Of a stretch of DNA of 64,000 nucleotides, positions 1,861 to 45,307 are shown piece by piece (the first letter of the stretch is position 1; each line of letters opens with the position of its first letter). This DNA comes from an uncultured Gammaproteobacteria bacterium. Its GTDB lineage: Bacteria; Patescibacteriota; Microgenomatia; UBA10105; UBA927. The translations under genes and the position numbers were made by a program. Below the pieces are notes generated by a model. The model did no database searches. It saw nothing but the letters and a program-made list of their open reading frames with translations, and was not told the DNA's origin. Location of the stretch: contig CAYSEV010000001.1 of assembly GCA_964430295.1 (NCBI GenBank), positions 5,699 to 69,698 of the forward strand, in the 5' to 3' direction.

Positions 1861-1876
1861 GATATCCAAAAGATGT

Positions 1877-1927: not shown

Positions 1928-1928
1928 G

Positions 1929-1999
1929 TGGACCCGAGGGGAATTGAACCCCTTTCTACTCCATGCCATGGAGTTATACTACCGGTGTACTACGGGCCC
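1929..1999 (-). tRNA. tRNA-Ala, anticodon GGC.
   Basis: Reverse complement: GGGCCCGTAGTACACCGGTAGTATAACTCCATGGCATGGAGTAGAAAGGGGTTCAATTCCCCTCGGGTCCA. It has the same acceptor stem as the other tRNA, with G3:U70, D-stem GTAC/GTAT, anticodon stem ACTCC/GGAGT with loop ATGGCAT (U33, anticodon GGC, A37), T-stem AGGGG/CCCCT with T-loop TTCAATT, and discriminator A. Confidence 0.8.
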
Positions 2000-2300: not shown

Positions 2301-2453
2301 ACATCCAGTGTGGCATGAAAAAAGCGACCCTGTCAATCCCTAGTTTTCACGAAAATTATAGTATCCACATGTAAAATGCCAAAAATTGAGTGCCTCATTT
2401 GCATGTAACCGTACATAATTTTCTATTGATGCAGATATAGTACACACTGGCCA

Positions 2454-2482
2454 TTGACGGGATGTGTTCGCATATATATATT
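2454..2482 (+). promoter_or_regulatory. Putative sigma70-type promoter for giant gene 1: TTGACG (2454-2459), 17-bp spacer, TATATT (2477-2482).
   Basis: This is a near-consensus -35 with exact 17-bp spacing to an AT-rich -10, about 100 nt upstream of the GTG at 2582. The intergenic region 2337-2581 is AT-rich. Confidence 0.3.
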
Positions 2483-2581: not shown

Positions 2582-5500
2582 GTGGGCGAACTTATACAAC
2601 GGGTTTTTCATCTGATTGAAAACAAAAGATATTCAGTATCTTCTTCTCAAAACCCCTCCAAACGATCTGGTTATTTATCGAATGATACGGTAAACAATAG
2701 TCGATCATCAGGGTTTGTTCAATTGCTTCCATTGGTTCTACTTGTCATTTTTGCCAGTAGTGTGTTTTTAGTGGTAAATCAGGTGGAACGATCAAATCAG
2801 GATGTTCGAAGTCGTGCTTCAGGACAGTATCCAAACGTTACGGTGACACCCGCTAAGACGAATACACCATCTCCCGCAAAAACAGTAACACCGACTGTCG
2901 TGAGAACGGGTACCCCCACCACTGCAAAAACAAATACTCCGGTGACAACAAGGACCGGTACACCGACCGCTGCAAAAACAAATGCTCCGGTGGCAACAAA
3001 AACTTCCACAACTACTCCGTTGGCACCGTGTCGTCCAAATATGCATAGAACAATGGGTGGGGACTGTGTCTCGAATTCCAGCACTACCGCACCAACGGGG
3101 TTTGTGAGCGGAAAGCCGGCAACGCCAAGGCCATCTGTTACCAGTGCACCAGCAGCTACTCCGACACCATGTCCGTTCTTCTCGATGTGTACATTGAACA
3201 AATTGCTTGGAAACAACACTCCGACACCGTCTCTCAAACCGACTACAACTGGTTCTTTTGGGAGCTTGGCCGGTACAGCGGGTGCAGGGACAGGAACGAG
3301 AAAACCAACTGCAACGCAGACGCAACGACCAAATCCAACAGGTTCGCCGTCTCCGACTCCAAAAAGCCGGTTTATGTGCGGATGCGGATTATTGGATGGT
3401 TCATGTTTGGCGAGTTGTGTAGCATCAGGGTTTTCTACACCAACAAAAACGCCGGTTCCGACAAGAACAACAACCCCGGCAAGGACTCCAACAGGTAATC
3501 CGTTTGCCGGAGTCACAGCAGGTGTTGGGACAAGAACGCCGACGCCTCAAAAAACAACAACGCCACAGAAGACGGCAACGCCAAACAAAACAGCGACACC
3601 CGGTGTCAGTGCTACACCGACATTGAAACCCGGCGCAGGTTGTGTCGTCGGTGTGTTTGGATTGTGGGATACGTGTAGTCAATGTTCAAATGGGCATCAT
3701 TCTGTCAGAGGTGGCGGAGAAGTATGTAACGGTGGGCCGTCAATCACACCTCCATGGCAGGCAACAAAAACGCCAACAATAAACCCATCAAAGTCACCTA
3801 CTGCAAAAGTCAGTGCGACACCGACAAAAACGGCACTTCAGAGTTGTATAGCAGGGTGCTATGGCTCGTCGTCCTGTATCACCCAGTGTGGTAAAAATAA
3901 TCCGACAGCAACGCCTCAAAAAACAGCAACACCGACGTTAAGCGATCTTCAGAAGCAGCAACAGGCATTGGGAGGATGTATTCAGGATGCAAAGGGAGAT
4001 GCCGCAAAAGTTAACGCATGTATCAGTAAGTATCCGAAGCCTTCAACAACGCCACAGAAGACGGCAACGCCACAGAAAACAGCGACACCTGGTGTCAGTG
4101 CAACACCAACGCTGAAGCCTGGAGCAAGTTGTGTTGTTGGCCTGTTTGGATGGGGAGATACATGTAGTCAATGTTCAAGTGGTCATCATGCTGTCAGAGG
4201 TGTTGGGGAAGTTTGTAACGGTGGACCGTCTATAACACCTCCATGGCAGGCAACAAAAACGCCAACACCAAAAGTAAGCATTACGCCTTCCAAAACAGTC
4301 ACACCAGCAAAAACAGGTACGCCTACTGCTGCCCCGACAATCGTTCTTCTGAAAGCAGGACAAAACTGTAATGTCTTTGGATCGTATGCAAGTTGTGGTC
4401 ATTGTCCATACGGAAGTGAACTGCAAGGATTAAATGGCGTCTGTAAACCGGCACCATCAGGGCAACCACAAGTTCCCACATATTTACAACCCGGAGCCGA
4501 TTGTAATCAGTCTGGAGCAGTGAACAACTGTAATAGATGTCCATATGGTGCAAATCTTGGTGGATATTGCTATCTGGCTCCCGATACAAAAATAAATCCA
4601 ACAGGTACGACAAAGCCAACAGGGACAGTTGCTGCTACAAGAACACCTACAGTTGCTCCAACAGGTACAGTTAGACCAACTGTAGCTCCATCAGCTAAAC
4701 CTGTGCCTACAACAACACCGCCACCCATACTTGCTGATCTGAAAAAAGGAACGCAAAGCTGCGGAGGTATAGATGCAGGTGCAGTTGTTATAGGAGAAGG
4801 ACATCATTTATATGGTTGTGATGGGAGAACAGGGACCTATGTTGATTTGACCAAAACTGGCACAGGCGTTACAGAAGCGGACCTGACTGCAAAGTATATA
4901 CCTGCATGGTATGAAGGATCAAAAACACAAACTGCTGTTGAAACGGCTCAATTTGAAGCGGCAAAAAATAAACAAAATAAAGAGAATGGTGTAGTTATCC
5001 CAAGCGGATCATGTTCGGGTGAAGGAGGAAGAAGTTATAGTGTCGGAACCGTTGTTATGGATAATTATGTCTGTGGCGAAGGTGGACGATGGACAAAGTG
5101 TGATCCGACAAAAGATGTCATGTGCGTACCCGATATTAGCAATATTCCGGCGTATGCACAACAAAGTATCACAAAGGCGCAGTATGATGCACTTTTGGCA
5201 AGTAACACTGCCGGCCTTATACAGGGAGCAGATGGAAAATACTATCAGATTACAGATCCAAAATTGGCCGCTGCGTATGATACCAAACAGAAAGAATTGC
5301 AAAAAATACAAAGTAATTTTGAAACCTGTGGTGGTAGTCAAAGCTGTGTGGATGCAGCACTCAAAGCTATGGGAAATTCCACAGCTGCACTGACCGCGAA
5401 AGTGAATTTTGTTGAGACACAACAATCCCAAAGCGCTCTCATGAGTTATTTTGAGCAAAAAGAACTGTATGACGCCTGTGTTTCACTGCACGGCGAATCA

Positions 5501-8500
5501 GGCTGTAGTAAATATGCGATGACACAGGCGTTTCTTGAAACAGGAGGGGCATATGGGGCCACATTGAAGGATGTTGACGTGCAGTATGCTTCCTATTTGG
5601 AATCAAAGTACGGTGCAGCGTCAGGTTCAGGTTCGTCTGGAATGGACCCTGCTGCTGAAAAATTAGCGAACGAGATATTAAATGCTCAAACAGCAGCCGC
5701 CAGAAACGCAATTATTGCAAATGCGGTTACTAACTGTGTTGCAAATGGTGGAGATAGGATTGCCTGTTCGAATGATATTCAGGGTTTTGCAAATAACGTG
5801 TTATATAGAGATAAAATTCTGGACGTAATGATCTCGGGTGATGCAGCAGCAAAGCAAAAATTGTGCCTTGAAATAAATCCGGGATCTTCGGGGAGTCGTG
5901 ATAATAATCCATGTTCACCTGAAAAAATAAATATAACCCTTTCATCAACATTGTCTGATTCCGATCCACTAAAGGTGCAGATCCGCTATGTGGAAGTTTC
6001 CACAGATGACGCAGCCCTTCGTCGTGTTTGTCCGACGTGTTTCAATAAAGACGGTACAGTGAACCAGACAGAAAAAAATAAATACCTTACAAAAATTACC
6101 ACTGCTGCAGGCTTAACAACAGAACAGGTTAAATCCCTCGAAACACAGGCTGCCGCTGTGCAAAACTACGAAACCGCCCTTAAGAAATCAGGACTTACGG
6201 AAGAACAGTTTAAAGCACAACAGGAAGCAGCTATGGCATACATGGCAGATAAGCTATCTGCAGGAAGTTATGCAGCATATGCACAGCAGGTAGCAAGCGG
6301 TGCCATACTCGCCACAGATGTTCAGAAAATGATAGAAAATGTGAACTCCTCCTGTGGAAAATTCCTTGGCATTAATTGGAAGGGCGGGTCAGACGGGTGT
6401 GCTGCAGCGAAGGATACGCTCATGTTGAATGCGTACAGCGACCAGGCAAAGGCGGAAATATTTGCCGGATATGATACATCCAACGCGTATAAGGATTACC
6501 TAAAATCGAAAGGACTTACACTGCAAACAGATTCGGAAGCAACCAAAGAACAGTTCTATCTGGATTCCATGAAAGCACTTGCAGACAACCATCAGTACAT
6601 GGTGAATGCAGATATATTGCGAGAAGGACAGAATGAAGCGGCGATTTTTGATCAAACCGCACGCGGGCAATTTGCAGCAATCACTTTGGATAAAGCTGTT
6701 GATGCCAATTTATCTCCAATGGGGCAATTCGGAATAACGGTTTACAAAGCAGTCGAATTCCTGAATCCTCAGACATGGACCGGCGGCGGGTATCATAACG
6801 ACGCGATAAATGCACAGTTCCTGCAGCAGCAGATGATAAACAACAATCCAACTGAGTATAAAACTATTCTGGATGGGTACTTAACTGATCCAGACTATCT
6901 AAAGGCAAAGAAAGACTATGAAACAAAAAATCCGGGTAAAACTCTAAGTACGCAGGAATATCAAAAAGACCTGCTGACGCAAGGTATGGCTATGGAGCGT
7001 GATGCGGAGCGAAGGGGTTTCCTCTGGCTGGATGTTACCGGAGATCGGTTGGATCTTGGAAAACCTGCCATGAATATGATCGCCGATGATTCCAAGTGGC
7101 TGGAGCAGGGGATTCTTCTTGGAAAAGTTAATCCAAACACGCTCAATACGGGTCTTGATACGATTAAGAACAATACTTCATTATCGGATGAAGCCAAAAA
7201 ACAACAGGCACAACAACTCGTCGGTGATATGTTTACATCTGCACTCGTACCGCAACAGTTGTCGGCATTAGACACAAGTGATGCATACAAAAATTACCTC
7301 ACTGCGAACAAACTAACAGATACGGAGGCTTCCCGAAAAGATTTCGTTGCCCAAAATGTGAAATCGTACATGGATTGTAAAGGATCATCATGGTATCAGA
7401 ACAGTTGTGATGATTATGCAAAAGTAAATGGAGAACAGTACACACTGGCTCAGGCTGTAACAGGTACAAAAGACTTTACCGGTATTAATAATGCGGTGGA
7501 GGGCTTACGAGATATGGGGGCAGGTACTTCCTTGTTGGTTAAGGTAAATTCCATGACGGGTGGAGATATGTCGAAAGGAAACGCAGAATCACTTGCTGCA
7601 ATGAATGAATTAACCGAGCGAAACCCAGTTCTGAAGAATTCAAAGTTCCTGCAGGGAGTTGCCAACGTCGTGTTACCGATTTATGAAGGTGCAACAAACC
7701 CCTTCAATTTACGTGGTATGGCAACCAACGCTGTCTTGGACGCAGTCGGTGTTCCAAACACATTTGATTCCAGAGGATGGGCATATTTTGAAAATCAGTA
7801 TCAGGGAAATGCCACAAAGGCATATATAAAACCCGCTGCGGCTGTATCCGTATTGGCTGCGCCGTTTGTAGCTCCTGCATTTAGTATCGTTGCGACACCA
7901 TTGGCATTAACTCAAACCACAATTAATTCTTACTTCATGCTCAACAGTTTCGGCAATATGAACAAAGCCTGTGTATCGGGATCGTTAACAAAAGAATGTG
8001 CTATGGCAGCAGGCAACAGTGCACTTATGACCGCATTTACATTCGGTGGCGCGATAATGGGAGACTATGCAACAGGTCAAAAACTTGCACAGGGAGAACA
8101 GGTATTAAACGCATCTCAGATGGCCAAACCGGGATACATAGAATCAGCAAAGGAATTGGCTACTAATTTTGTAAAGGCAGATGCAAACGGCGCATACACA
8201 GCCGCAGCCGCATCACAGCAGGCAGTGGGAAGAGCTGCTGCCGGATTCTTCACCTATCAGGCTATCGATACATGTAAAGCCAGTCCATGGTCAACTGAAT
8301 GTATAACATCAATCGGTATGGCCGGGTTAACAATCCCTGGTGCCTTAGGTATTCAGGGACTGGGAAGCTTTAAAGTGACCGAAGGGCTTAGTGCAGATAT
8401 AGGATTCACTGCACTCAATGCTGTTCAAATCGCTGAAGGGTGTATCAATCCAGATAAACGTTCGATGGACGCGTGTATCGCAGGACTTGGATTTACAGTA

Positions 8501-11500
8501 TTGGGACTTCATGAAACGCCGGTGACCGGAGGCGCAAATGCTGTAGAGGCAAAGCCTGAAGATCTGATCCCGCCCCCCGATGCATATGAACTTGCGAAAA
8601 CCAAGTATCTGGAAATGGTTGACGGCAACGGATTGCCTAAAAAAGGATTTACCGCGGAACAGGTAAAAACAGCAGAGACGGAGCTTAGAACTGCGTTGAC
8701 TCAAGAGGCGCAGAGGGTGGCGGCAAAGCAGCTTGCCGAAGAGTCTGTGGCAAATAAGTATGTGACGGCTGAACCTGCCAAGCCAGGTTTTATTGAATCT
8801 GTGAAGTCTCTCTTTACCAAGAAAACGTTTGTGGAAACATCCATTCAGTCAGATCTAGCCAAAGCAGCAGAGACAATGAAAGAAGCTGAAGCCAAGTACT
8901 TGGAAGCCAAAAAAGAAGCGGCAAAAACAGATACGACAAAAACACCGGAAGAACGGGCGGCTGACCTGCAAACGGCAAAGGAAGCATACGAAAAAGCGTA
9001 TGTTGACCTTGCAGGTAAAAACACACTGGCTATTCAGGAAAAATCTATTTACGATGGACCATCATTGGTTAAAAGAGTTACGGATTCAGTATTGGATCTT
9101 TTCAAAGGTAATCAGACTGAACGAAGCACGTTACAAAAAATGCAAGAGGAGGCTGCAAAGTTGGCCCGTGAATATCAGGCAGCGGATCCTGCCGCTAAAG
9201 AACAGCTGCATAATGACTATATTGAACAACTAGGCAACGTCCAAAAAGCACAGCAGGCATTAGACATCAGCAGACTTTCACCTGTGCAACAGGAGTTATA
9301 TAAGAAGATGGCTGCCGAAAAGCAGACGATTACGGATTTGCAAAAAAAGCTTGTCACAGAAGTTGCCTATAATGCGGAAAACACCACGCGTATTCAGGAG
9401 TTGGCTACGGAAATTGCCCAGCATAAGGTCACTCTCGCAAAAGCAGCGGCCGAAATGGCGATAGCAAAATCATTCGGTGGGCGGATCGCCGAACTGTTTG
9501 GGCAAACACAGTGGATCACTAATCGAGCGGCTCAGCAAACAGGTGCAGCACAAACGGAAGAAGCAAAGAAGAAACAGGAATTTAAAGCGTCACAGGCGGA
9601 AATTGAAAGCGCTCGAGATATCGTCAAACAGTATACAGAAGGGTTAAAAGCTGATAATCCGAGAGTATTGGAAATGCAGCGTGGACTCAATAAAGGTAGT
9701 GCAGAATTTACGAAAATACTGGAAGCAGAACGAACGGGTCTCACACCTGAGCAGGAAGCGACATGGAAGAAATCCATTATAGAAAATCAGGCAGAGCGTG
9801 ATGCATTGGCAGCCGGTGATCGCACTGCCGTTGAAAAAGCTATCTCTGATCGTTTTGAAGCACTCAAAGAGATCGAAGGTTTGACAGATTTAGAGAAATC
9901 GTACATTGAAAAACTAAGATCTTTGGAGGAACAAATAAGAAATAAAACAGTCGATACAAATCAGCTGATAAATGAGTTCAATAGAGCCCAAAAAGTTACC
10001 GAGTACAATAAGACACTTACAGATCTGCAAAAATCAATAGAAGCGCGATTGAAAGGTCCAGAGAATCTGCAACAAAGAGCTTCAGATTTGTTGAAAATCG
10101 TAAAAACTCTAAAACAAGTTGATTTGCTTGTAGATGTGCATACAGCAATCGGAGAAGGTAAGCCAGGTAAGGCTGCTTCTCTATTGCAGACAAAAGAATG
10201 GTCAATTCCCAAGGATATGGAGGGATTTACAGAACCCGGAATGAGCGAACAGTTTGAGTTTATCGTGCGCGATGTTGAGCATAGGCTTGCCGTTGATGAA
10301 GGTGGATTCAGAAGTCAGAGAGGCAATCAGGCAGATACAGTCCTCAAACTTATGCAGACGGACAGAATCGCCGTAGAGTTGACAACGAACGGAGTTAAAA
10401 CGACCATGGTAGGTTCAACAATCCTCAGAATGGAACTTGAGGTGTTTGAAAGGACTCCTGTGTTCGTAGCGAAAAAAGGCCAAACAGATGCTGTAAGAGA
10501 TATTATTAAAAAGTTAGTTCCAGAAGGGACAGATATTCAAATTGTTAAAGCAAGTGATTTAAATGGCACAGCAGGTGACGGTCGTGCTACTGCAATTGCG
10601 AATGCAGATATACTAATTATAGAACCGCATGAGGGAAACTTTATTCGCAATGCAAGCTTGGGCAAAGGTGAAAACGGCGCCAATATAGATGCAGCGACTA
10701 GAGTTTACAACAAGCTGACAAACGATGTTGCACTGTATGTTGATGAACTTCATCTGAATCTGGATATCAGCCAGCAGGGTATTAACCCGGTCGGCAATGA
10801 CTCCGCTCCGATTACAAAAGCACAGGCTGCGATAGCAAAAAGGACGGGAGACATTCTCAAAGACATGCAATTAATTGTCGAAAAGAACTTTGCGGAATGG
10901 GGTAAATACAATGGAAAAGACGGACTACTTCGGACAACAACACAGGCAGATGGAACGATCGTTTCCGATCCACGATTCTCAAGAGAAGTCGTAACTGAAT
11001 TCCTAAAGAGAATAGGCGAGTCTGAACGAATTCCGCAGGATATTATTGATACTATCCGCGACAGAGCTAGTGAATTTAAGAACCTATCGGAAAACGAAGT
11101 AGGAGTAAAACTGAAAGAACTGTTAGGAGAAAAAGCCTCAAGCAGTACTGTTGCCTCGTTAAGTGAGCAGGGCATAAAGGTGCTTGATTATATTGATTCT
11201 CTGAATACATTTGCCAATGGTATGGCGAGAACGTATGGTTCTGATTATCAGTACGCTATTGATGATGTAATCGCAAAGCAAAACGGAGGAGTTGAACGAA
11301 AGAGTGCCGTTCCTGCTTCAGGAGGAGATTTGAGTAAAGGCCAGGCGTTTGACTCAAAGATGATGCCTGCCATGGAATATCTAGCAGCGACAGCTGTGGG
11401 TGAGACCCCGAATTTTGAGGGGCTTAAGGCTACGCCAGAAAGTGCCTATAAATCCAGTGTTGCTGACTGGATGGGAGATCTTTCAAATGGGAGTGCTATC

Positions 11501-14500
11501 CGTGCAGTCACCGGCAATATGGCTGATGCAAAGGGTGTCGTTGAGACGGTCATGAGTCTCAAGACTGAATACTCTCCTGAAGCGGAATATAAGATATTTG
11601 GCTCACCAGACGGGTCAGTTGTAGGTCAACTAGCTAAGGAGCGATCATTTATCGTACGTAGTGACGCAGAGGCATCCAAGATGCTTTCCAAACTTATCGA
11701 GTCTAAACTGCTTGATACAACGATGGGTAATACTTCCAATGGCAATCTAAAAATTACTTTAGCCCACAAAGGCGCATGGGATCCGATTAAATTATTCCAG
11801 GATCAGGTATTAAGTAGGACTCAGGGAAATGATCCTGTATTAACCAATAAAACTGTACACGTGGCAGTTGGAGAAGGAAAGTTTGCGGAATTGCGAATCA
11901 ACGCGGAAGGAAGACTAGAAGGACTGGATGCGTCAGGAAAACCGACCGGCACGATTCGTACGACCGCAGAGGTTGAAAATATCTTTAAGAGCGGTAATGC
12001 AAAAGATACGATCGTTGTCATTGATGAAGGTGGTCACACAGGAACGACCATTCTTACTGAAAATGTGCCTGGTATTACTGTTGGCAACAGTAAAATTACG
12101 CTCGGAGACCTTATTCAAGGTGTGAGTCGAGGTAATCGAGGAAACAGTTTATCTGATCAATACCTTATTTATATAGACGAAGCTGCTCCAGTTATCGACT
12201 TTACTAAACCTGGGCGCGAAGTTGTCGACTCAACAAAGATGACGGATGAACAGTTTGCAAAAGTGCATGAAAATGCTCAGAGAGAACAGGTAGTAGCTGA
12301 AAAGTTAAAGACAACAAACGCTCTGAATCTAGCTGTGGAAGCGGCGAGTAAGCGGCCAATATCCGATGCTATTCGGGCACTTCGCAATGCAAACACTTCG
12401 AATGATCCTGTGTTAAAGAATTTGGCGGACTGGATGTCTGACACGCTTTTGGATTTTGGTACCAGATCAAAGAATCGTGATTTGAGACTTGAACAGGGTG
12501 AAGCCCAAACAACACTCGAAGCCCGACAGGAAATGATACAGCGGGAAGCGGCAAAGTGGGATGCATTCCTGAAAGATCCGGCTAATGCGTCTCAATTGAA
12601 AGCCCTCAAGGAAATTCTGCCTGACATAGTTGCACGTATGGAGGAAAACCGTGATGTGTTTGCCAACGGTGCAAAATTGTCCTATGCCGAGAATCCTGAG
12701 CCGATGTGGAAGACGCTGGCACGTCCTGAATTCAAAGAGACATGGGATGCTATGGTGAAGAAAATTCCGGAATTGGCAAACTTTGATCCGGCGGGCACTA
12801 CATGGAATGCACTCTTTGAGCCGGCAAATCGAGTCTTACTTGATAAAGTACGGGTAGATTTCCCGGAAGAATTTAAGCGATTCGGTTCCAATGAACCATC
12901 TAAAGATCCGGTATTGTTCGCCAAAGATCTGAAGGAATTAGTGTTGCGTCATGAAAGCTCTATTAAAGCTGATCAGGAAAGTAAGTATACAGCTAAAGAT
13001 TCTAAGGTGGATGTCAAAGATTACGTAAATGTGGCAGAACACCTGAGTACCAGCCAGAAGATTGGTGTCACGGTATTGGATGCGTTGGGTAATATGTTAC
13101 CGGGAAGTCTCGGCCTTCCGTTCCAAAACTGGTCAGCATCTATTAAGTATGGTGTACGCCAGACGGCAGCAGAAAAGTTACGTGAGGAACAGGATGCCGC
13201 TGCCTCAACCATTCCTGTGCCAAATTACAGCACAACTCAAAGTAGAGCTGCACTGATCGATGCGGCAAAGAAGCCGGATGCAACGGTTGTGGATAAAGCC
13301 CTCGGGCTTATTGCATTGGCTAAACAATACCAAGCAGCAAAAGATAATTTAGATAAAGCAGTCAACCCTGTCCGTGGAGTAGAAATAAAAGCAGGAGATA
13401 AACTTGGTAGTTCTATTCAACCTAACGCGGCTATTAAGGTCGAAGATTGGCGCATTATACGTGTAGATTCATCCGGAAATGTAACTTCTGTTGATCCGCT
13501 TATCGGCGCGACTATTAAGGATGGAGATATAATTATCAGTAATGTAGAATATGAAGCGAAAAAAGATAAACTCATCGGAAATAATCTTGAGACAGCAAAG
13601 AAAGTTGATGGAGTTGTCTATAGTATCGTTCCAACGATTGCTACAGTGATCAGAGTTGGTAAAGCAGATGCATTACCTGTTACTACCGTATCGAATAACT
13701 CATCAGAGGCTCTGTTTGCTGCCAATAAAGCGAAAGAAGAATTCCAGGCTCAGCTAGAAGTAGCAGAGAAAGATATCGCCCTGCGAATTGCAAATGAGTA
13801 TGGAATTATTGTGGCTAATGTTCCATCAGAACATCAGAACACAGTATCAACAGCGCTTCAGGATATAGCCGTGTATGAGGCACAGGTGATTTCTGCAGTC
13901 GCAATTGATCGTACTGTTGATGTAAATACTGTGCCTGAAGTTAAAACCGCGAAAACTGATGCAATTGCTTCACTGGACGCGTTGAAAACCGTCCTTTCGG
14001 ATGCGGATAAAGCAATACTACAGGGCAAAACATCTGAGCAGATTATAGAATCTCTTACATCGGCTGTGATTGCAAAAGCCAGAACAGCTTTGACTCCTAC
14101 AACGACAAAGACAACCGCGACGATACAGAGTGGATCATGGTTTACCAATGCTATAAAGAACAGTTGGAACTGGGCTCGCAGTCCTGAAAATATGGGTGCC
14201 CGCATCTTTAAGACTGTCGTCGTCATTAGTGCCTATATGCTTGCCGCTGGCGTTGCAATCTGGGTGGTCGGAAGTGTTATCGGATGGGCAGCCCCATTGA
14301 TTGGATCCCTATTTGCAGGAAGCACAGCAACAGGAGCCGCGGCAGCAACTGGGGCAGCGGCAACAACCACCACGGCTGCGGCTGCAACTACGGGTTCATC
14401 AGGATTGCTTGGATGGTTGATAACGACCAATCCGTTGCTCAACGTATTTAAGATCATGTTTGCGCTCTCATTCCTTGTTATGAGCTATTACAACATTATA

Positions 14501-17500
14501 AGTCCTGCTTCGCTTCGTAAAAATGAAGATGCAGTAGGTAAATTTGCCAGAACATACATATTTGCACCAAACCCGTTCAATCAAACATTATCACGAGGTC
14601 AAAAATGGGCATCAGCTCCAATGTTTATCGGCAGATATGTTGTTATAGCCGGTAGTCCACTGATGTGGCCGTTGGCTGTAATGGATATGGCAAATATATG
14701 GAATGAATATAGACTTTCACACGGTCAACCCACGTGGACGCAGCAACCGAATGCTCCGGAATGGTTAAAAAATGGAATGCGCAATGCAGTACAGCCGGAT
14801 GCTCTATATGGAGAAAATATCGAAAAGGGGAATGGGAGTAGATGGGGTGCGGTAGTCCATTTTGCAGCAGGGTTATCCGGTGCATTCATGCATGCAGTCT
14901 GGGGACCGGTTGCAATGCCATTTATGGCATATGATGTACTGACTGCATCAGCATCGAGATATCCACAGAGCAAAATTGTTGGATATCTAAAAGATGGGTT
15001 ATTCCCGGCTCCATGGAAGTCAGGACAGACAGGCATTCTCAATATTGGCTATTACGTAGCAACGCGTTGGCTACTATTTACTAATCCATTTACAGCACCG
15101 ATTGGAATACCTGTTCTTATTCATGATGCCTTCAGATTTTTAAATGATTTTGTAAATCAGGAAGTTGCCGGACAAATCCGACAACCAAATATAGATGCTG
15201 CAATTGCGTATACACAAGCCGAATTAGATAAGCAGGTTGCATTATATGAAAAGACTAAGTCTGATTTGGAAGCCGCTAAGAAATCGTACGCAGATTTGGT
15301 GGAAAAATCGAACAGTGGTAAGGCACGTGCAAAGGAGCTGCAAGAATTGATTCGAAAAGCCAGAATCTCTCTCTCTGCATCTGAAGCTAGATTGACACAA
15401 TCAACTGAGAGGCTGAATCAAGCAAAAAATACTGTAAATGCATTGAATCAACAAAAGACTCAAAAAACGTCGAAACAGGATCTGCAAACCGGATACGGTC
15501 TAGTCTCTGTTGCCTCCACTGAACTTATCGGTCGTGATTCTTCTCTCGGAAATATTCAAGGAAGCAGAGTATCGCGCAGACACGCATTAGTGTATCGGGA
15601 TCGTGCCACAAATGTGCTGGGAATCTCTGATTATAACTCAAGCAACGGGACATATGTAAATGGAGAACTGCTATCAGGCTATCTGGAACTGCAATTAGGA
15701 GATATTGTTACACTCGGTAAATTACGAGAACCTGAAAGTGCTGTATTGACGGTAAAATTACTTAATGGAGTGTTGGAGTTAGTAGATAGTCATGGAAAAA
15801 CAGTCAAAGGTAAGGCTATTAGTGCTCCGCCAGTAACTTCTGCATCAGATGCAGTAGTAAAATCAACAGTTTCTAGAAAGACTCCACTTGAAACCATATC
15901 AACTGGAGAAGCTAACTCTTTGAAAAACAGAATAACTATATCTGGCGATGAATTTAGAGGGAAAAAACTTACGGTAAATGAATTATATAAACAAAAACTA
16001 CAGCCTAAATACAGTATTCAAATTGACGGAACACAATATTACCTATCCGATTTATATGACATAGGTCAAGGCAGGCTGGCAGGCGTTGTCTATGTAGAAA
16101 TTGACGGTGTGTTTCACGCAAGATCATTCTATAGAAGTAATTCTTCAGCTGTATGGCGCTATTTGCCGGGATACGCTTCTGATGATGATGAAATTACCTG
16201 GTATTCGAAGGCATATGGTGAGGAAGGTATTAACGCTCCAATTACACTACAACAAGCATTAAGTAGATTACAACAGGACGGATCTCTAGTTCGCCCTGCT
16301 GACGATCAATTTATATTTGCTGGCCTTGCCCAAAGGCGAAGAGTCTCATCGACCTGGCTCATTAATATGAGGGAACAACCGGAAATGCTGAATATATCAT
16401 ACTCACGAAAAGATGCAGATAAACTTGCTGATCCGGAAAGTATGAAGTTCACAAATCCTGATGATGCTCCGGATTTTGGATCATTCCTAACAAGTTGGGA
16501 AGAGGACACTGCTCTATACGGAAAGATTACAAAAGATGCATTTTTATCTAAAAATAAAAAATATACATATGTCTTTTATCGCGATGAAGAGGGTAGAGCA
16601 GGCATAGCTTTTGTAGAAAATCAATCAGAAATTGTATCTCAGGGTATACGCCAACAAGCAGTTATAATTGGTGATTTAGCAACGCCTATATTTGAATATG
16701 ATTCACAAGCAGGCGGATATGGAAATGCCAAAATTCGCAGAGGACATTATGTGGATATGTATGCGAACTACCTAAGTAAAATACCAGTGATTCAGGAATA
16801 CCAATCATTCGTGAAACAAGGTGTCCGAAAAATAGCAAAGGTAGAGTCAATAACAGCAGAAGAAGCTGATCGTTTGTCAGAAGAAATTAGAAATGCATCT
16901 ACCGCAATGGAAGATGCACGAAGAGTTACGGTTTCTGATGCGAAACAGGTTACGCAATACAGAGAACAACTAGCGGTACTCCTCAATGAATTGGAATTGT
17001 TGGTTTCACAGGAAGGAGATGTTAAAGCTTCTTACGATGCCATCGTTTCGGGTAACGATGAAATTAAAAAAATTCAGGAAAAGATTGATCATTTGGAAAC
17101 AAAACTGGAAGCCCTTACAAACTGGAATCAGGCGAAGAAAAATCTTCTTGCTGCAAAACCACAAGCACAAATTGAGTGGATTGACCTGTTAACTGCACCG
17201 ACAGAAGAAATCATCCGAAGTATGAATAAGATGATTACACAATCGGCATCTGTGCCATCAAGCTCTCAGGTATTGGAAGCCTTGAGAGATAAGGATAATG
17301 ATGGAAAATCCGGCATAGAGCGAGTATCAGCGGCCGGAGGATACGTTGCTGTTTACACTGCACTTCAAAGCGCAAAAGCGTCAAATAGACAGGCCGATAT
17401 AGATATTGTTATGACAACACTTCGCACTGCTGCCGCAGAGCGATTGGAAAAAATAACCGGAAAAGCTATCGATCTGAACTCAAAAGAAGGGAAACGGATG

Positions 17501-32500: not shown

Positions 32501-35500
32501 AAAGAGCAGATTGCGGCAGCACGCAAAAAGGTTAAAGCCCGCAAAGATGCAATCACAAGAGTAAAAGGAAAAGTAACAGCTGTACGTGTCGCAGTAAAGA
32601 AAACAAATACACTTATTGCTCAAAAAACACAAACCGATAAAAAACCGGATGCCGAATATCTTTCAGAGCTCAGTGAACTTAATATCTTACTCGTGGAGGT
32701 TTCACAGGATATGAAGGTTGCGGGATTACTCAGTCCAGTCGTGACTCGAGCCGCTGCCTTGGTAAAAGATGAAATAGCGGTAGCAGGCCCCGAGGCACTT
32801 AGCACTATATCTGAATCATTGGAGAAAGCGCAAAAAGCCCTACAGCAGCAACAGGAAGCAATCGCAAAAGCAAAGGAAGCGCGCAAAGATGCAGGATTAC
32901 CTGAAGAGCAGAAATTTATAAAGGGAAATCCAAATGTTATCTCCGACTTGATCAAATCCATAGTTGATACAGCCAGATATTATTTGGGCTTTGATCGTAT
33001 AAAGCCAACGACAGTAGGAGTGCCCACAGGTCTTCCTGATGAAGAATCAAAACAAGTTGAACCTGAAGTAATCATCCCGCGTTGGAGGATACTCTGGTCA
33101 TCCACATTCCAACCAGCACGTGATCTTGAAAACAGAATAGCCCGTATGGAAGATTCATACGCAAAGATTATGACTGATATGGAATCAGAAGGATTTAATA
33201 ATCTCGATTTGTTAACGGTATCTGCTGTTGATGCTGTCCAAATGCGCACATCCATAGACGCGTATAGGACCCGATTACGAGCGTTGGTTGGTACGTTATC
33301 AACTGTACAGAATAGATACACTAGACAAAATGGTAGATACTCACAGTCCGATCGCGAGAGGCTCTCTGGATTCCTATCGGATTTGCAGACACGCATAGAT
33401 GTCTCAAATGAATCATTGGATTTGTTATATACAGGACTAGGGGAAATTGTACAAAGGCGAGACGTATTTATTGATGAATTGCCTCCTGTTGAACGCCCTG
33501 CGTTCTTACTTGTAGAACAAGTTGAAACAGCGCTTAGCGTTTTCCCATCAATCAATGATGGATGGTCAAATAAAAAAGAATTGGCAAAGACATTGGAAGA
33601 ATCATTGGCTGAACGCGAGCGAATGTATCTCGTAATGCGCAATGATTTCTTGTGGAATCCACCATATATTAGTGAACTGGGAGGAGTTAAAGAAGAAGCA
33701 TATCAAAAATATAAGAAACAATTCGATGCACTGTTTGAACAGTGGGATAATCTCAACAAAGCGTACGAAGAAATGCTCAAGGTTATGCCGGATGAAAGAG
33801 TTCTAGGACATGTTGCTGGTGGCAGATTTGTCCCGTCCGAGCAATCTCCGGAATTTGGCGGATCACGACTATCTATAGACTGGTCAGGTGATCACATTGT
33901 CATTGCGTATTCACTGATTGGTATTTCAGATCCGGCAAGCAACTGGACGCTCAACGGTCAACCAATTGCCCTTACACCGGATCATACGATTGATATAGCA
34001 GATGGTGACGTCCTTGCAGTTGCGCATGGCGAGTATTATGGGCAGACATTAGAAATTCATAAGAATGGCGAAATTACATTCGTATCAAAAACAGATCAAA
34101 CATTAGCACAAAGAGCAACCGCAACTTCTGTAAAAGCTGCTGGTGGTCTTATCGGCTGGTCGGTCGTTAGTATTGTCGAGTCAAGTGAGACACAAATGAA
34201 AGCAACTGATGAATTCAATGCATTGCATAAGAAGAATACTCAGTTGCCTCTTCTAAAAATGGAAAAGGTAGAAGGTCAGATAAAAAAGACTGAAAAAGCA
34301 CTAACAGAGCTCAATAGACACCTGTCACTATTGCAAAGTACTGTCATGGATAACGTTTCCGGCAGATCCGCCACACGCCGAAATGAAATTATCGCAGAGC
34401 TTACCCGAAGAAAAGAGATTCTGGAACAGGATCTTTTAGCACTGAAAGCAAAATATGCAGACCAAGGATTCTCGGTAAATATATCTATGCTCAATGAACC
34501 TATACGCATCGAAAGAGGACAGGAAGCGGAATCTCCAATTCCTGGTGTCGTCATTAATGAAGATAAAACTATTCAGTTAACATCATCAGATCAGGTTGAA
34601 AACTTTGTAAATGGTACTCCAAACGCATTTGGATTTATCATTCAGCCAGGCGTTGGTTTGCCGATATTAACCAGAAACAAGCTGACAGGACACCTTCAGG
34701 CTTATTTTGTGCTGAACGAAGATGGCGTGCTCATTGTTCATGAAATTCCGTTGGCACCATGGTATAGAGATACAAACAAAAATATAGATGCTCTTGAAAT
34801 TATTAATCACAGAATTGCAGACATAGAAATGTATGATTTGGAGAATATGTTCGGTACAAGAGCCGTTGGAATATATGCCGAAATCATAAATGGTACCTCT
34901 ATACTTCGTAAAATTCGCGGAGATGATGGCAAAACTCTCATTGCCATTACCGATGCTACTATCCCGACGGTTCGGAACACAATGAAAGAAGAAATAAAGA
35001 ATCAAATAGCAGCGTTCAAAGAACAATTAAAACGTACGCGAAGATCAGATGAGCAATATGATCTGATTCAGAAGAGAATTGATGAACTGCAGGCACTTGA
35101 TAAATCAGATATCCTGAAACCGGATGGGTGGGAAGATATCGCCTTTATCAGCGAAAAATACGAACGCAGTTTAGTACATCGTGTGGCTATAAAAGCGGAA
35201 AACTTCCGTTCAACATATAGAAAATTTCCGTTAGTTCGATGGCTCAATTTCGCTTCAGGTATACCATTCTACGCGTCTACAGTGACAATGGTTACAGGTG
35301 TTTTGGGAACAGTACTTGGTCCTGTAGGATTAGCCATAGGTCCTATTGTAGGTCCTATCTTGTGGGCATCACCGATTCCACTGAATCCATCTGATTTTTT
35401 CTGGTTCGGTGTTGATATATTCGTCAAAACGGTTACTGCGCCGTTTATCCTTCCAGATACGATTGTCGGCATGGCTGCACGAACTCATGGATTCTCTGAT

Positions 35501-38500: not shown

Positions 38501-41500
38501 ACATTCATTCAATCAATTAAAGGATCAGATTTTTCCTTCGTAAGACAACTGGAATCCGTCGTAAAGCGTCTGGTTAGTAAGATAACATGTGGTCAGGCAG
38601 GAAGGTTGATAGGTATTATCTATGCAACAGATGCATCCGCTGCCGCTTGTGAGCCATCTTTAGTTTCACAGACAGCTTCATTTGCCCCCTGGACAGTAAT
38701 TTCTCATGTCGTGAAGGTTGGGGCGGCGCTTATTGCAAAACCATTAACATCTCAAGGATTACGTCAGGCTTATAGGGCTATAATGCCTGTTTCTCCCGCA
38801 TTGTCTAAACCTGTGTATACAATTATCAATAAGGTAGAAGATGAAAAATATTATGTGTATGAGATTAAGCTACAGAATTCTTCACATACATTTAATGTTA
38901 GGATTTCTAAATTCCTTTCATTTGACCGAAATACAACACAGTCTACAGGGAATATATTTTTAGACTGGCATACGGCATATATTGAATCAGTTGTTGAGGG
39001 ATATGATCGTGCTCTGACTATAAATCCAAATATATTTGATACGCAGTATCCGCTGGATACAGTAGATTTTGACATACGCGCGATAAATGTGGATGTGTTA
39101 TACGAAAGCAATTTCTCCAATAGAATTTTTGATGGTATAGATGTGCCTGAAAATACAATAGTGCTTCCTGGTAGTGTCGTCCAGAAATTTGGGCAGGATC
39201 CGACTGTTGTGACGCGTACAATCACAGGAAAGTTGCTGTTAAATGCAGCATATTTCGGGTACTCTCACGATGAAGCTCTATGGCTGCGAATAATTTCTAA
39301 AGATCCATCCGCATTACAGGCATACCATGCACAGACGGATGCACAAGGTGTTACGACACATCTTGATGAATACCACAAAATTAAAGATGCACTTATACGT
39401 GCATTGCCATCACAACTAGTTGTTGAGGCAATGAAAATGAATGCAGATGAACTTATTCAGTTTTTCGCACAATTAAATGATGAAGAGTGGATGAATGTAT
39501 TGAAAACATACTTCGAACAAAGGGGGTTATCTCATGATGATCAGCAAAAGGCTGTTCTTTCATCCTTAGCTGCTAATGAAAAGTTCGTATATTATGCATC
39601 GTTCATTAAAGATGTGTTTAAGCATCAGTTCTCAGGAGATTTTATCGCGAGAGCAAGGTCCGAGGCGAATAGTCAACCTGCATTTCAGAGACGAATGCTG
39701 CGAATATTTAATTCGATACAGTTTGAAATGGATCAGACATATATCATTTCATTCTGGAAATATCCAAGGCGCATGTTTACTTTGTTGAGGGATATTTTCT
39801 ATTTTGAGCGCAATTTCATACCCGGTGACGAATTAGATACCCATGATGTTTCATCGTATGAACGCCTTATGAATTTACATTGGATCTCATTGGCACTGGA
39901 AACAAAGTCATTCACACCCGAATTGAGAAATTTAACTATTCAAATGTTCTTCAGTGTCATGCAGAAGGTTCTTGAGGGCAAACGAAATGCTGACAATGGT
40001 CCTATATCCGAGTATACGGATGAAACACACAGATATGTTGTGGAAACTAATATTGTAGCATTTGAAAAAATGTATGAATCTCTTTACCCAAGGGGCGTAT
40101 CCCGAAAAGAGTTAGATGCTTTGGCTAATGCTGTACGAAACATCGTTTTGAAAAAAGGAATATATAGTATTTTTGGAAGTTCCAGTGCATATGAAAGTAG
40201 AGCAGAAGAATGGTATTTACGATGGATCGACACTATTCCGGGTTTGCGGGGCAAATATAAGATAACAAAGTCAGAGGAAGTACTATTATCACGTGCGGTG
40301 CTTTTGATGCAGCATATTCCTGATTTCACAACATTGTCCGCACATGATCGCGAAGTTATTGGAGCGTCGCTGCTGAGGTATTTAGGAATTCCGGATGCGA
40401 GGGCAAAATATTTGTCTTCATTGTTTGTTCTAACGAGAAAAGACACATCAGTGGAGACCGTATTAAATGACTATGCTAACGCTCAGTATGATGGGCTTAT
40501 TAAGAAATATTCAGCAAGATACACTCCGCAGCAGATGCAAAAGAATATTGCATTAGCGAAGCAGGCTGCGGAAGCAAAAATAAAAAATAGGAATGCTAAA
40601 GTAGCGGATCTTTTGAATCTGCCGGACACGGATGAAAATAGAATTCAGGTATTTTTAGATGGCTATGATGTAAATCCTGAAAATGTGCTCTTTTATGACT
40701 CGGAAGTTTATGTTGATACATCGTATAAAAAACAATGGGAAGCTCTCTACCTTACAAGACTATTCTATATTCAGGATGAAGCCTACATGTCTGAAAAGTC
40801 AGGTATTCCAGCTGCTGATCTTCGGCGAGCCTCAGATGAAACACTTCGAATTTTCCGTTCAGAATATGAAGAAGTGTTTAAACGTGCGTATCCGAATGCA
40901 GAGATAATTCCTTCTGTTTTTGAGTCTGCGAACGCACTGTTTAAAACGATAAATATGATTGGTAATCCACTTGTTGTGATTCCTCCAACGAGTGTCATGG
41001 GTCCATCTACATTCGAGGAAATTTCAGTAAACGCGGGATCGGCAAATATTATCGGAAGATCTCATATGATAAATGCCGCTGTTTATTTTAGCTATGGAAA
41101 TTCTGTTTATCCGCTAATAGATTCCTCAGTGCATGAATTATGGCATTTAGCCCGCAGAGTAAACGATCGCGGTACTATGAATAGCATGTATCGGTATCTG
41201 CCGCAGTCTATGTGGCACCAGCTTGAGGAAGGAACTGTAACAAATCTGGAGAGGAAGGCAATGACTATTGCGTATCCGGGAGTTCCAATCATATCAATGG
41301 CAGATTATGCTATGGCTGAACAGTCATACCTGAGCATGCTTCAATCACTCCGACAGGTTCTTCCGACAATGAGTGATACAGAGTTTGATCGTCTAAAAGC
41401 AAAAATGGAGATTGGGGATTACTACGAAGTTGTTACGATGCTTGGCGGCTGGGATGCATTTAATACATTTTTGGAGGCAAATAAGATTGGTAATTTGCCA

Positions 41501-44500
41501 TATTTCGAATACACATTCGGCAGAAATAAATTGACTGATGCAACCGGTATGCAAACAGTTCAGATGGCGCAACGAACATCTTCAAATATTTCAGCATCTA
41601 ACGATACAAATCATTCTGACATGGCAGGAGTTCCAACTCTCACACAAACCGCTGAGTTTGTCGAAGTAAAACAAGCACTTCAGGGAGCACAGCGACAACT
41701 GGAAGGATATCAGGAAAACCTGATGGAAATGGAACGCTCGCTCAACTTTGTAAAGATTGGACGATTTATTGCCTCTGTAATCGGTATTGGAGGGGTACTA
41801 GTTCTTTTAACAGCTTCTGTAATACTAGCCACAACATATCTCATTCCGGGGATAATAATGGCAGCTGTCACTGCTGTCCCGGTGGCAATTTCATTACCGT
41901 TTATTATAGGAGCGTTTAACACATCTATTGTATATCCGCTGGAAGAAAATATAACCGATGTAAAGGTAGAAGTAATCGATCAGCAACAAGTCATCAAAAC
42001 ATTACAGGAAAATCCTCTATTCACAGAGCCTGCACTTCAGGATCTCAAAAAAGAAATGATACAACAGGAAACGGCTCATATGGAAGCGACACATGATGTA
42101 CTTATCGAAACACAAGACACACTTGACTTCTGGAAGCGGGTAAGAACTGTAATTATGGCTATTTTAGCTACAGGAGCGATCTTCGTTGGGGTCATATTAT
42201 TCTTCTTAACGGGGATGCCTGCCGCACTTGCTGCACTATTCATGACGCTGCCTGTCGTAACAATAATGGGTGGAATATTTATGGGTATGCAAATTATACC
42301 GATTGCACCGTTGGCAAATGATGTACGTGATTTACAGAAAACCTATGAATTACAGAAGAATTACATTCAAAAATTACAGGGAAAAACGTCTGAGACTGCC
42401 CCCAAATTAAAAGTCGCCAATGACCCATGTACAGGTGAAGGAGCGTTCCGACTCTTTGGTCGGGTGTTTGCGGCTGGGCCATGTCCGATTATCCCACTAG
42501 GCGCTACGGTTCCTGTTGTGACAACTGGTGGTAAAACAACAGATATAGCTCTCCCAGCTGGTAAATACGTGATTGCACAGACAGAGGAAGAAGCAGCGCA
42601 ATCAACAGCAGAGAAAGCAGAACCAATTATAGGAACCATACACGGCATGCAAACTGGGAATGAATTCATACGTATATTCCCGACTGTTCCATCAACCACA
42701 TATCCTGAACCCTTCATCATCAATTATGCTGGATATGTCAAAGCGCATCCGGTAGAAGAAAATATTCAAGCTACAAAAGAACAAGGAACGCAGATGTTGA
42801 AGTCTGGCCTATCTTATCCATCTTGGAGATTAGATAGCAAATCAGAGAAACGAGTAAAACTGGCAACAGACACACTTCCAAAGGGACAATACTGGTGGTG
42901 GAGGAAAATTGATCCAGTTACATTACAACCAATTGGCGACCGAATACTCATCAAAAACAATCAAGGAGAGATGCCAACCATAAAGCCTGGAGAGACGATA
43001 GCGGTAGGCACATTCAACGCAGACAAGTCTGGTAATCCAACCACATTTATGGCTGCTACCTATGTGTTTGATGGTGATGTGATCCTAGGGATAAAAACAG
43101 GATCCGACGCAATAGGGCCATCATCTACCACAACAAATAATTCACAATCAACACGACAATCTTCAAAACCAAGCACATTTCCAAAAATCTATGCATCGAT
43201 TATTGCATTTATATTTGATCCATTCGGCCGATTGGCCGAAATTCTATCAACGAATGGAAATATAGTGACAGCAGAAGAGTTACGACAATCCGTTTCTTTA
43301 CGGAAGTCAAATACTGATGCCGATGGTAATTTTACGCTTGACTATTTGATTTCGCTTGTTGGAGAAAGCCGTTCAGTACTGAGAAAACTGGTTCAATATA
43401 TGATGAATTTAGATTTTGCATATGAAGATATACGGGATATTGTAGAGGAAATTGTTTCCGGCCAATTTGGAAGTAGAACCGATAAACTTGTAAATTCAAG
43501 ACGCGTAAATATAGCAATCGTCAGCGCTATTATGTACGACAATTCCATATACGGTTCAAAAGTTCCCATGCCGTATACCATGAAAGAAGCGCTAAAAGCA
43601 GCCAATCTATATCTAGAACAGGGAGATGATTCTATTGTAACCAGACTGATTTCAGTAGGTATATTAGAAAACAGAGCACAGCAGATAAAACAAATGCTAG
43701 ATTCCGTTAATAGTGCAGGCTGGGATCAGCAAATATCGAGAATTGGTATAGTTCCAGTTCTCCTTACGCAAGCAGAATTAGTCGCGTATGACATCACAGA
43801 GCGTGCAGCAGGGCAGTTATATGAGGAAGCTCGGCGATGTTCCGGTCTATCGTTACTCCCGACTGTGTATGCTGATGCTGGTACAAATACTTCCTGTTCT
43901 GCTATGGGGAGAATTGTCTCTACAATGCCTCAAATAATCCCAATCATTGAAAGTAGCTGGGAAACATTACCTGGGAGATTTAGAAGAATCTGGTTGAACT
44001 TGTGGAATTTTCCAACTAGTTCTCTCACCATCAATACATCACCGGGAAACGATGATACGGTCTCGATAAGTCAAGAACAAATCTATGCGGCAACGCTGGA
44101 TTATATGGGTCAATTATTCGCACAGAACACCAATGGTAATACTGAAGAAATACTCTCACAAGTAACTACGTATGCAAGGAATCAAGGTTTGAATCAAATC
44201 CAGATTGATAAACTATCGTTAGCAATGGAAGTGATGGGGAAGAATCGTATCAGATCAGAAGAATTGCTTGCTCAATATAAAGATCCAAAAGATTTGTTTT
44301 ATGCAATGTTTGGATTACGACCATGGTTTCCTATTACAGCAGAGAGGGTTGGGGTAAATATTGCCTTTAGATTATATGATATAGATAATGCACGCTTGGT
44401 GGAAAAATTTATCCCACCGATAAAAGATAAAAATCCTCTAAAGAATTCAATTAATTATATATATTGGTTAATCAATAGGCCATTTAGATTCGCATATGGA

Positions 44501-45307: not shown

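Follow-up and report, generated by a model that had tools for sequence, protein, structure and literature searches.

Giant proteins with numerous transmembrane (TM) regions have been described in Omnitrophota, where such regions were found in all full-length giant genes and where TMHMM and DeepTMHMM disagree in their predictions (West-Roberts et al., 2023, bioRxiv 10.1101/2023.11.21.568195). TM helices or a signal peptide have also been reported in 94% of 916 long Omnitrophota proteins, of which the most helix-rich has about one helix per 370 amino acids (aa) (2026 preprint, 10.64898/2026.06.07.730766). Another example has been described in Vampirococcus lugosii, a predator that belongs to the Candidate Phyla Radiation (CPR), where the longest proteins (1,392-4,163 aa) are membrane-localised, contain the adhesion domains WD40, PKD, integrin and fibronectin, and have been proposed to act in host recognition and attachment (PMC8080830). 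Here, we describe an open reading frame (ORF) of 14,241 codons in a 64,000-nt stretch of contig CAYSEV010000001.1 (assembly GCA_964430295.1, positions 5,699 to 69,698 of the forward strand), the whole of which is called the window below. The product of this ORF, from a monoderm-like and probably Patescibacteria/CPR bacterium, is probably a single giant membrane protein of alpha-helical, multi-pass type, which would serve as an envelope-spanning scaffold whose chain passes from one side of the membrane to the other between modules of different type.

The giant protein is like those of Omnitrophota ('Archaeovorin'-type and others) in exceeding 10,000 aa with few Pfam-recognisable domains, in having strongly hydrophobic sites (at least five) between kilobases of soluble sequence, as those proteins have many TM helices, and in a predicted mix of extracellular and intracellular parts that includes peptidoglycan-targeting and peptidase-like modules; its source would likewise be an ultra-small, host-dependent type of bacterium. 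There are several differences. Most Archaeovorin members carry a divergent SecA DEAD domain and often lie near type II secretion or pilus genes, whereas full-length Pfam scans (E <= 1) gave no SecA_DEAD match in the giant protein, whose gene is accompanied by rho, a LysM-M23 gene, tRNA-Ala genes and a second giant gene. C39, dockerin and TSP3 domains were likewise absent from the Pfam scans, and while dockerin-type giants are marked by dockerin, TSP3 and discoidin repeats and a TM-free N-terminal part, the giant protein has no such Pfam matches and has a predicted N-terminal TM helix. The TM density is lower, at about one helix per 1,000 aa, no sequence similarity to anything among 1.84 billion representative proteins was detected, and the flanking genes are Patescibacteria/Chloroflexota-like. 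Unlike the V. lugosii giants, the 14,241-aa protein is without WD40, PKD, integrin and fibronectin domains. The initial annotation of this DNA had called the topology unusual for a giant protein, a claim that has to be given up, as scattered TM helices have already been described in Omnitrophota; what is new is an orphan sequence in an apparently CPR-like genome with the order FHA domain, TM helix, amidase modules, hydrophobic module M2 and PP2C-like modules. On the evidence of the window, Patescibacteria/CPR-like genomes may be a further place where giant multi-pass proteins occur.

A single reading frame and its hydrophobic sites

Three ORFs of at least 300 aa were found in the window, namely a gene with LysM and peptidase M23 domains, the giant ORF and, downstream of it, ORF2 (Table 1), and of its 64 kb the two giant genes account for 60.7 kb. 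Positions in the giant protein convert to those of the window as nt = 2582 + 3(aa - 1). In-frame base periodicity, with G at the first codon position far exceeding G at the second, was seen in all 14 of the 3-kb blocks of the giant ORF, and the other two frames contain 844 and 1,054 stops. Given that there is no internal stop and that the coding signal persists in frame throughout, the giant ORF is a real continuous coding sequence, as had been proposed for this interval, and an artefactual or accidental ORF is ruled out by the signal over its whole length. Inflation by tandem repeats was likewise ruled out, as the gene has almost no tandem repeat, with a single one of 43 nt.

Table 1. Features of the window (positions in nt; KD, Kyte-Doolittle hydropathy).
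Feature	Position	Strand	Residues and remarks
Rho C-terminus	3-383	+	upstream of the giant gene
LysM + peptidase M23 gene	574-1659	+	
Two tRNA-Ala genes	1789-1999	-	anticodons CGC and GGC
Promoter-like site	2454-2482		upstream of the giant ORF
Giant ORF	2582-45307	+	14,241 aa; GTG start; 42.7 kb; no internal stop
N-terminal signal-anchor helix (predicted)	2717-2779	+	aa 46-66 (strong window from nt 2717); KD 2.58, Hessa sum about 0; followed by Pro/Thr-rich linker
Cysteine-rich, Thr/Gly/Pro-rich region	3029-8476	+	aa 150-1965
Weak hydrophobic cluster 1	7832-8542	+	aa 1751-1987; 12-21-mers rich in Ala/Gly, in alternation with C-x8-10-C loops
Module M1	13757-15154	+	aa 3726-4191; hydrophobic core aa 3875-3973 (nt 14204-14500); strong windows aa 3878-3896 and 3952-3973 (nt 14213-14500)
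FHA domain	15527-15718	+	aa 4316-4379; PF00498, E 1e-11 to 1.7e-12
Single strong TM helix (predicted)	17633-17701	+	aa 5018-5040; strong window aa 5020-5038 (from nt 17639); KD 2.06, Hessa -0.21; followed by Pro-rich linker
CHAP-like (papain-like) module 1	17999-18361	+	around lone Cys5152; Pfam CHAP E 0.053
Papain-like amidase module 2, Tse1-like	19904-20161	+	aa 5775-5860; lone Cys5780, His in GHGHIAMV
Module M2	22334-23710	+	aa 6585-7043; hydrophobic core and strong window aa 6737-6802 (nt 22790-22987)
PP2C-like module 1	27812-28804	+	aa 8411-8741
PP2C-like module 2	29930-30826	+	aa 9117-9415; paralogue of module 1 (self-BLAST E 4e-25)
Weak Gly/Pro-rich hydrophobic cluster	35240-35455	+	aa 10887-10958; 51-aa charge-free run, mean KD 1.08
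HExxH module	41117-41476	+	HELWH at aa 12851; common to ORF2
C-terminal double TM hairpin (predicted)	41762-42310	+	aa 13061-13117 and 13187-13243; strong windows aa 13063-13117 and 13190-13241 (nt 41768-42304)
Conserved domain after C-terminal hairpins	42419-42781	+	motif PC..G.F.LFG.V.A.GPC, aligned with ORF2
Second HExxH motif	44612-44626	+	HELQH, aa 14011
ORF2	45494-63478	+	5,994 aa; 186 nt downstream of the giant ORF, AT-rich spacer between

TM segments were called from 19-residue windows (KD >= 1.6) together with the summed Hessa scale. Five strong hydrophobic sites were found in the giant protein: the N-terminal helix at aa 46-66, M1, a single helix at aa 5020-5038, M2, and a pair of hairpins near the C-terminus, which reach KD 2.76 and Hessa -3.4 and have between them a polar linker of about 70 aa, predicted as helical. 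Eight window stretches with a summed Hessa dG below zero were observed, as opposed to 0.56 +/- 0.85 in 50 shuffles. Asp, Glu, Lys and Arg make up 22% of the protein; charge-free runs extend over 79 aa (3878-3956), 78 aa (6740-6817), 59 aa (13062-13120) and 58 aa (13189-13246), with mean KD of 1.2-1.9 and expected numbers by composition of 4e-5 to 7e-3. Two further clusters are hydrophobic but ambiguous as TM segments. Cluster 1 is rich in Ala, Gly and Pro, with a best window of KD 2.03 and Hessa +3.9 (segments +3.9 to +6), a hydrophobic window at aa 1752-1771 and a 44-aa charge-free run of mean KD 0.92, and probably makes no net membrane crossing; the best window of the cluster at aa 10887-10958 (aa 10901-10929) has KD 1.86, Hessa +3.0 and several prolines. 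Within the latter, aa 10899-10934 (35276-35380, +) show a small-xxx-small spacing, GVLGTVLGPVGLAIGPIVGPILW, that is glycine-zipper-like and includes three prolines, which is unusual in a TM helix.

These results bear out the N-terminal anchor of the initial annotation and the recurring helix clusters that it had placed at 14.15-15.18, 22.72-23.74 and 41.75-42.31 kb, and leave those at 7.83-8.54 and 35.23-35.54 kb ambiguous. The helix at aa 5020-5038 (17.64 kb), which is among the strongest single helices, was absent from its list. The soluble sequence that it had described between the clusters is indeed hydrophilic and of Ala/Lys/Glu/Gln type from residue 1001, where A+E+K+Q+L+R make up 33-58% per 500 aa, and is instead Cys/Thr/Gly/Pro-rich in the first 1000 aa (28-32%). 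The giant protein thus very probably enters the membrane at several widely separated places, five or more.

Additional evidence comes from duplications found by self-BLAST of the giant protein. Homology between M1 and M2 extends over about 430-470 aa (E 5e-22), and the core of M1 is followed by a conserved Trp/Pro-rich domain of about 220 aa. Similarly, the C-terminal hairpin module is homologous to a double TM hairpin predicted in ORF2 (aa 505-666, nt 47006-47491), and the same Cys/Gly motif (Table 1) follows both hairpins, in a domain for which beta strands are predicted in the giant protein with low confidence. The hydropathy profiles are correlated at r = 0.84 between M1 and M2 and at r = 0.81 between the C-terminal module and that of ORF2, with an identity of just 25-30%, and such conservation of hydropathy despite low identity is the pattern expected of membrane segments. 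AlphaFold2 models from two-sequence alignments had a predicted local distance difference test score (pLDDT) of 39.9 for M1 and 43.4 for the C-terminal hairpin module, too poor for a fold search. M1 also carries, between its hydrophobic segments, a 26-residue insertion composed of Ala, Thr and Gly only (STATGAAAATGAAATTTTAAAATTG, aa 3913-3939, 14300-14400, +), which is not found in M2 and overlaps the sole tandem DNA repeat of the gene (18-nt period, 2.4 copies).

Modules between the hydrophobic sites

In full-length Pfam scans of the giant protein, FHA alone was found, and it is the sole established domain label in this protein, the others being plausible. It scores 45.5-48 bits against a cut-off of 20.7 bits, is also matched by FHA structures in the PDB, and contains the canonical motifs GRDSS (GR), SRRH (SRxH) and NGTYVNG (NG). 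PDB sequence searches over aa 1-10026 and 9401-14241 likewise returned FHA only. Downstream of the helix at aa 5020-5038 there are two papain-like candidates, each around a lone cysteine. The first matches Pfam CHAP at 14.5 bits against a cut-off of 26 bits. In the case of the second, all seven PDB matches (7/7) are to the type VI peptidoglycan amidase Tse1, weakly so (E 0.09-0.96), and the alignment pairs Y-C-N-I-F-V with N-C-S-G-F-V of Tse1 and G-H-I-A-M-V with G-H-V-A-V-V, the Cys and His of these NCSGFV and GHV motifs being the catalytic residues of Tse1.

The two PP2C-like modules likely share the PP2C fold. Module 1 has a partial match, over aa 8489-8686, to NCBIfam Stp1_PP2C (NF033484; E 5.5e-6, 26 bits against 230) and one to Pfam PP2C_2 (PF13672; E 1e-4, 22.4 bits against a 24-bit cut-off), and the PDB matches (E 0.2) of a profile of the two copies are exclusively PP2C structures. 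PP2C phosphatases bind metal through aspartates in the motifs DGHGG, GDSR, DG and DN. The VGD of the aligned PP2C structures is VGN in both copies, with Asn for Asp, the SDG motif of PP2C reads TYG in the first copy and SDE in the second, and a regular-expression search found neither DG[HM] nor DG.W[DE]. The two copies look like pseudo-phosphatases, in which catalysis is doubtful. As for HExxH, two such motifs occur in each giant protein, where about 0.09-0.10 would be expected in each. The module around the first aligns with aa 3250-3360 of ORF2 (nt 55241-55573; BLASTP E 2e-10), HExxH on HExxH. No match that would assign a peptidase family to the HExxH modules was found in Pfam, NCBIfam, PHROG or the PDB, where the search with the HExxH segments returned noise only (for example, arrestin and designed coiled coils). 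The module labels of the initial annotation thus differ in their standing: FHA is above its cut-off, CHAP is sub-threshold, PP2C is degenerate and HExxH comes with no peptidase family.

The N-terminal part of the chain is of a different nature. Of the 69 cysteines in the giant protein, 56 are found at close spacing in aa 150-1965, and the chain from aa 1966 to 5151 is free of them. Within this region, aa 322-429 are duplicated as aa 485-604 (3545-4393, +), with 69% identity. As its cysteines are close together, and as it is Thr/Gly/Pro-rich, Glu-poor and preceded by a Pro/Thr linker, we infer that this region is extracytoplasmic. The duplicated unit is a four-cysteine one, C-x10-C-x2-C-x13-C, similar units of slightly different spacing are seen at aa 596-621 and 641-663, and the sole Pfam hint for the repeat of aa 322-604 is PAN_3, at E 0.07.

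A similar set of modules is known from Ser/Thr phospho-signalling systems, where it is distributed over separate proteins, as in the control of the Gram-positive cell wall by FhaA/FhaB and the PP2C phosphatases PstP/Stp1, or in the threonine-phosphorylation pathway, with Fha1 and PppA, of the Pseudomonas H1 type VI secretion system, which has the amidase effector Tse1. By analogy, the giant protein would combine FHA, PP2C-type and Tse1-/CHAP-like amidase modules, beside a LysM-M23 gene. It differs from those systems in that all modules are fused in one chain that would be threaded through the membrane, in that its PP2C-like copies have Asn for the Asp of VGD, and in its surroundings, as neither a kinase domain nor type II secretion, pilus or other secretion-system genes were seen in the window.

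Topology of the chain and competing explanations

FHA and PP2C modules serve ATP-dependent phospho-signalling, normally in the cytoplasm, while the normal location of peptidoglycan amidases and of regions with closely spaced cysteines is extracytoplasmic. In the giant protein, FHA lies in aa 3974-5017, the papain-like modules in aa 5041-6736 and the PP2C-like modules in aa 6818-10886, with HExxH at aa 12851 and 14011, so that the modules do occupy different inter-TM segments, as first proposed. In the topology that we favour, aa 1-45 would be inside and aa 46-66 would act as a signal anchor, after which aa 67-3874 would extend outside as a Pro/Thr linker, a head rich in cysteine and a long A/E/K/Q-rich stalk free of Cys. 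The membrane crossings of M1 would be odd in number, probably three, leaving aa 3974-5017, with the phosphothreonine-binding FHA domain, inside. The single helix at aa 5020-5038 would lead out again to aa 5041-6736, where the two modules of papain-like peptidoglycan-amidase type would be accompanied by Ser/Thr/Asn/Gln-rich linkers, and M2, also by an odd number of crossings, would return the chain, so that aa 6818 onward would be inside with the two PP2C-like modules, which are probably non-catalytic. The C-terminal hairpins may then re-pin the chain to the membrane as extra anchors, with sides assigned in this topology up to the last 3,300 or so residues.

The parity of M1 and M2 can be approached independently of module type. 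Since M1 and M2 are homologous, they would have the same orientation, and with one strong helix between them each would have to cross an odd number of times, which gives the same alternation as the module types suggest. Each of the helices at aa 46-66 and 5020-5038 has a Pro/Thr-rich linker after it, and the second is also followed by Ser/Thr/Asn/Gln-rich low complexity. In the 15-residue flanks of this second helix there are two Lys/Arg on the N side (three counting K5019) and one on the C side, which leans weakly towards an inside N flank; positive-inside counting alone does not decide the topology. The earlier claim that the modules lie on alternating sides is thus supported indirectly, by the fit of module types (FHA and PP2C in, amidase and cysteine-rich region out), with two of the clusters doubtful as crossings.

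If this topology is true, about 5,500 residues of a single chain would be outside the cell and about 8,500 inside it, and the extracytoplasmic loops to be translocated between anchors, 3,800 and 1,700 residues long, would be a hard case for insertion of the Sec/YidC type. Such a protein may function as a scaffold that joins surface adhesion and wall-cutting modules to cytoplasmic phospho-signalling or docking modules, and the adjacent 5,994-aa protein probably works together with it. The presence of sidedness markers (FHA, papain-like amidase and PP2C-like modules) on the flanks of well-defined helices makes this an unusually clean test case for the topology of a giant protein.

Several points weigh against the favoured topology. 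The CHAP, Tse1, PP2C and HExxH assignments all fall short of curated thresholds, the single-polypeptide product is predicted from the ORF, and the scales behind the TM calls are simple ones. The searches found no homologue, and the taxon is drawn from two genes at 44-66% identity, with Chloroflexota matches close behind. In addition, the N-terminal flanks of M1 and M2 carry two to three Lys/Arg, which the positive-inside rule would place in the cytoplasm, the low-confidence AlphaFold model of M1 (pLDDT 39.9) has two long helices rather than three, and at about aa 1990 the composition switches sharply from Cys/Thr/Gly/Pro-rich to Cys-free and Glu/Lys-rich. The abruptness of this switch, after which cysteine is absent up to aa 5151, the Lys/Arg-rich N flank of M1 and its two modelled helices would all fit a different arrangement. 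In this one, cluster 1 would be where the chain truly crosses, from an extracellular head rich in cysteine to a coiled-coil region in the cytoplasm (aa 1991-5017), M1 and M2 would serve as hairpin anchors with an even number of crossings, and the chain would stay outside from aa 5041 to at least aa 10886. We consider this arrangement unlikely, as M2 would have to lie the opposite way round from its homologue M1, the PP2C-like modules would end up outside the cell, and cluster 1 is weakly hydrophobic, Ala/Gly/Pro-rich and interspersed with C-x8-10-C loops like those of the region preceding it. In both this arrangement and the favoured one, FHA and the amidase-like modules are parted by the helix at aa 5020-5038, so that alternation is the robust part of the prediction.

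The chain could also be a polyprotein, translated as one and afterwards cleaved, with its papain-like or HExxH modules as possible agents, into several ordinary membrane proteins. Each of these would have an anchor of its own, either a TM helix with linker and head, as at aa 46 and at aa 5020, or an M module, and the extreme topology would be lost in the mature proteins. This is more doubtful still, even though the boundaries at aa 46-66 and 5020-5038, each a TM helix with a Pro-rich linker, resemble those of independent signal-anchor proteins, putative peptidase modules are present, and the same idea has been raised for the C39 and S8 domains of Omnitrophota giant proteins (West-Roberts et al., 2023, bioRxiv 10.1101/2023.11.21.568195). 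On the other side, no cleavage sites or precedent are known for the giant protein, its peptidase assignments are weak, and the Tse1-like module looks more like a peptidoglycan amidase than like a protease.

A third explanation has cluster 1, aa 10887-10958 and/or the C-terminal unit of hairpin, helical linker and hairpin enter the membrane of a host or target cell, in the manner of translocator or fusion-loop elements. CPR bacteria live as episymbionts and carry very large surface proteins, as seen in Vampirococcus (PMC8080830), cluster 1 lies between the cysteine-rich head and a long stalk of helical composition, with flanking C-x8-10-C loops that could be disulfide-bonded, and ORF2 has a weak lipase-like alpha/beta-hydrolase signal. 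This explanation is improbable, as it is argued from architecture alone, Pfam and PDB searches of the giant protein found no translocator, pore-former or fusogen homology, and the Lys/Arg directly before the first helices of the hairpins are as in ordinary hairpins inserted from the cytoplasm. The suggestion in the initial annotation that different modules might sit in different membranes, such as a target cell's, accordingly found no supporting evidence. An extended version of this idea, which must be regarded as highly speculative, would make the giant protein and its 5,994-aa neighbour the host-contact machine of a CPR episymbiont, with a disulfide-rich head, fusion-loop-like Gly/Ala segments (aa 1751-1987, flanked by C-x8-10-C), a helical stalk that penetrates the host envelope with the aid of the papain-like amidases, and cytoplasmic FHA/pseudo-PP2C phospho-docking that reports or gates contact, so that one polypeptide would bridge two cells and two membranes. 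Least probable is that the internal hydrophobic stretches are the interiors of soluble domains in a single-anchor surface or cytoplasmic protein, which would be plausible for aa 1751-1987 and 10887-10958 (Hessa sums of +3 to +6, many Pro/Gly) but not for the 58-79-aa charge-free runs, which are rare by composition and far longer than the hydrophobic stretches usual in soluble domains, for single helices of KD above 2 flanked by low-complexity linkers, or for hydropathy that is conserved between paralogues.

Relatives, source and neighbouring genes

The giant protein is a sequence orphan, with no detectable relatives in the collections searched, and none were detected for the product of ORF2 either. 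No homologue was found in word-indexed searches with M1, aa 141-1200 and aa 12800-14241, and there was no match for an HMMER profile of M1 and M2 against 1.84 billion representative proteins, for an exact 41-mer in the GTDB species genomes, for the M1/M2 alignment in metagenome contigs or for the C-terminal module alignment in viral contigs. Similarly, tblastn gave no match for aa 12105-14241 in phage and plasmid collections or for both giant proteins in 80 Rho-containing loci, and the domain downstream of M1, taken through FHA, found nothing but generic FHA domains in metagenomes. A phage tape-measure protein or a plasmid conjugation protein was rejected, as there were no phage or plasmid matches and the neighbours, rho and tRNA genes, are chromosomal.

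The flanking genes point to a likely Patescibacteria/CPR-like source. The best matches of the Rho C-terminus in the GTDB species genomes are to three metagenome-assembled genomes (MAGs), a Ca. Roizmanbacteria MAG (L001), MAG L002 and a Patescibacteria-group MAG, at 65-66% identity, with Chloroflexota next and Omnitrophota Rho at 58-60%. For the LysM-M23 protein, an exact look-up gave no match, and the best matches are to MAG L002 (50%) and the Roizmanbacteria MAG L001 (44%). Several Patescibacteria and Chloroflexota loci have an M23-like gene just downstream of rho, an arrangement that L002 lacks.

In ORF2, TM helices are predicted at the N-terminus, ahead of the double hairpin described above. 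Its aa 1843-1931 or thereabouts (51020-51286, +) match 11 alpha/beta-hydrolase/lipase Pfam families, all sub-threshold, the best being LIDHydrolase (E 2.4e-5) and Lipase_3 (E 6.7e-4), which suggests that ORF2 may carry a lipase-like nucleophile-elbow region. Beyond ORF2, the C-terminal 174 aa of a gene that leaves the window are encoded at 63481-64000 (-) and end in a hydrophobic helix, LLLLIAASCTIGLIIIYY; this gene had no match in the loci compared. At the other end, a small ORF at 2076-2336 (-), divergent from the giant gene, would encode a single-pass membrane protein of about 75 aa with a basic N-terminus followed by a hydrophobic segment (WMLVVAFALMLGVGAIVG), and is preceded by a strong promoter-like site at 2382-2355 that agrees with the consensus at 11 of 12 positions.

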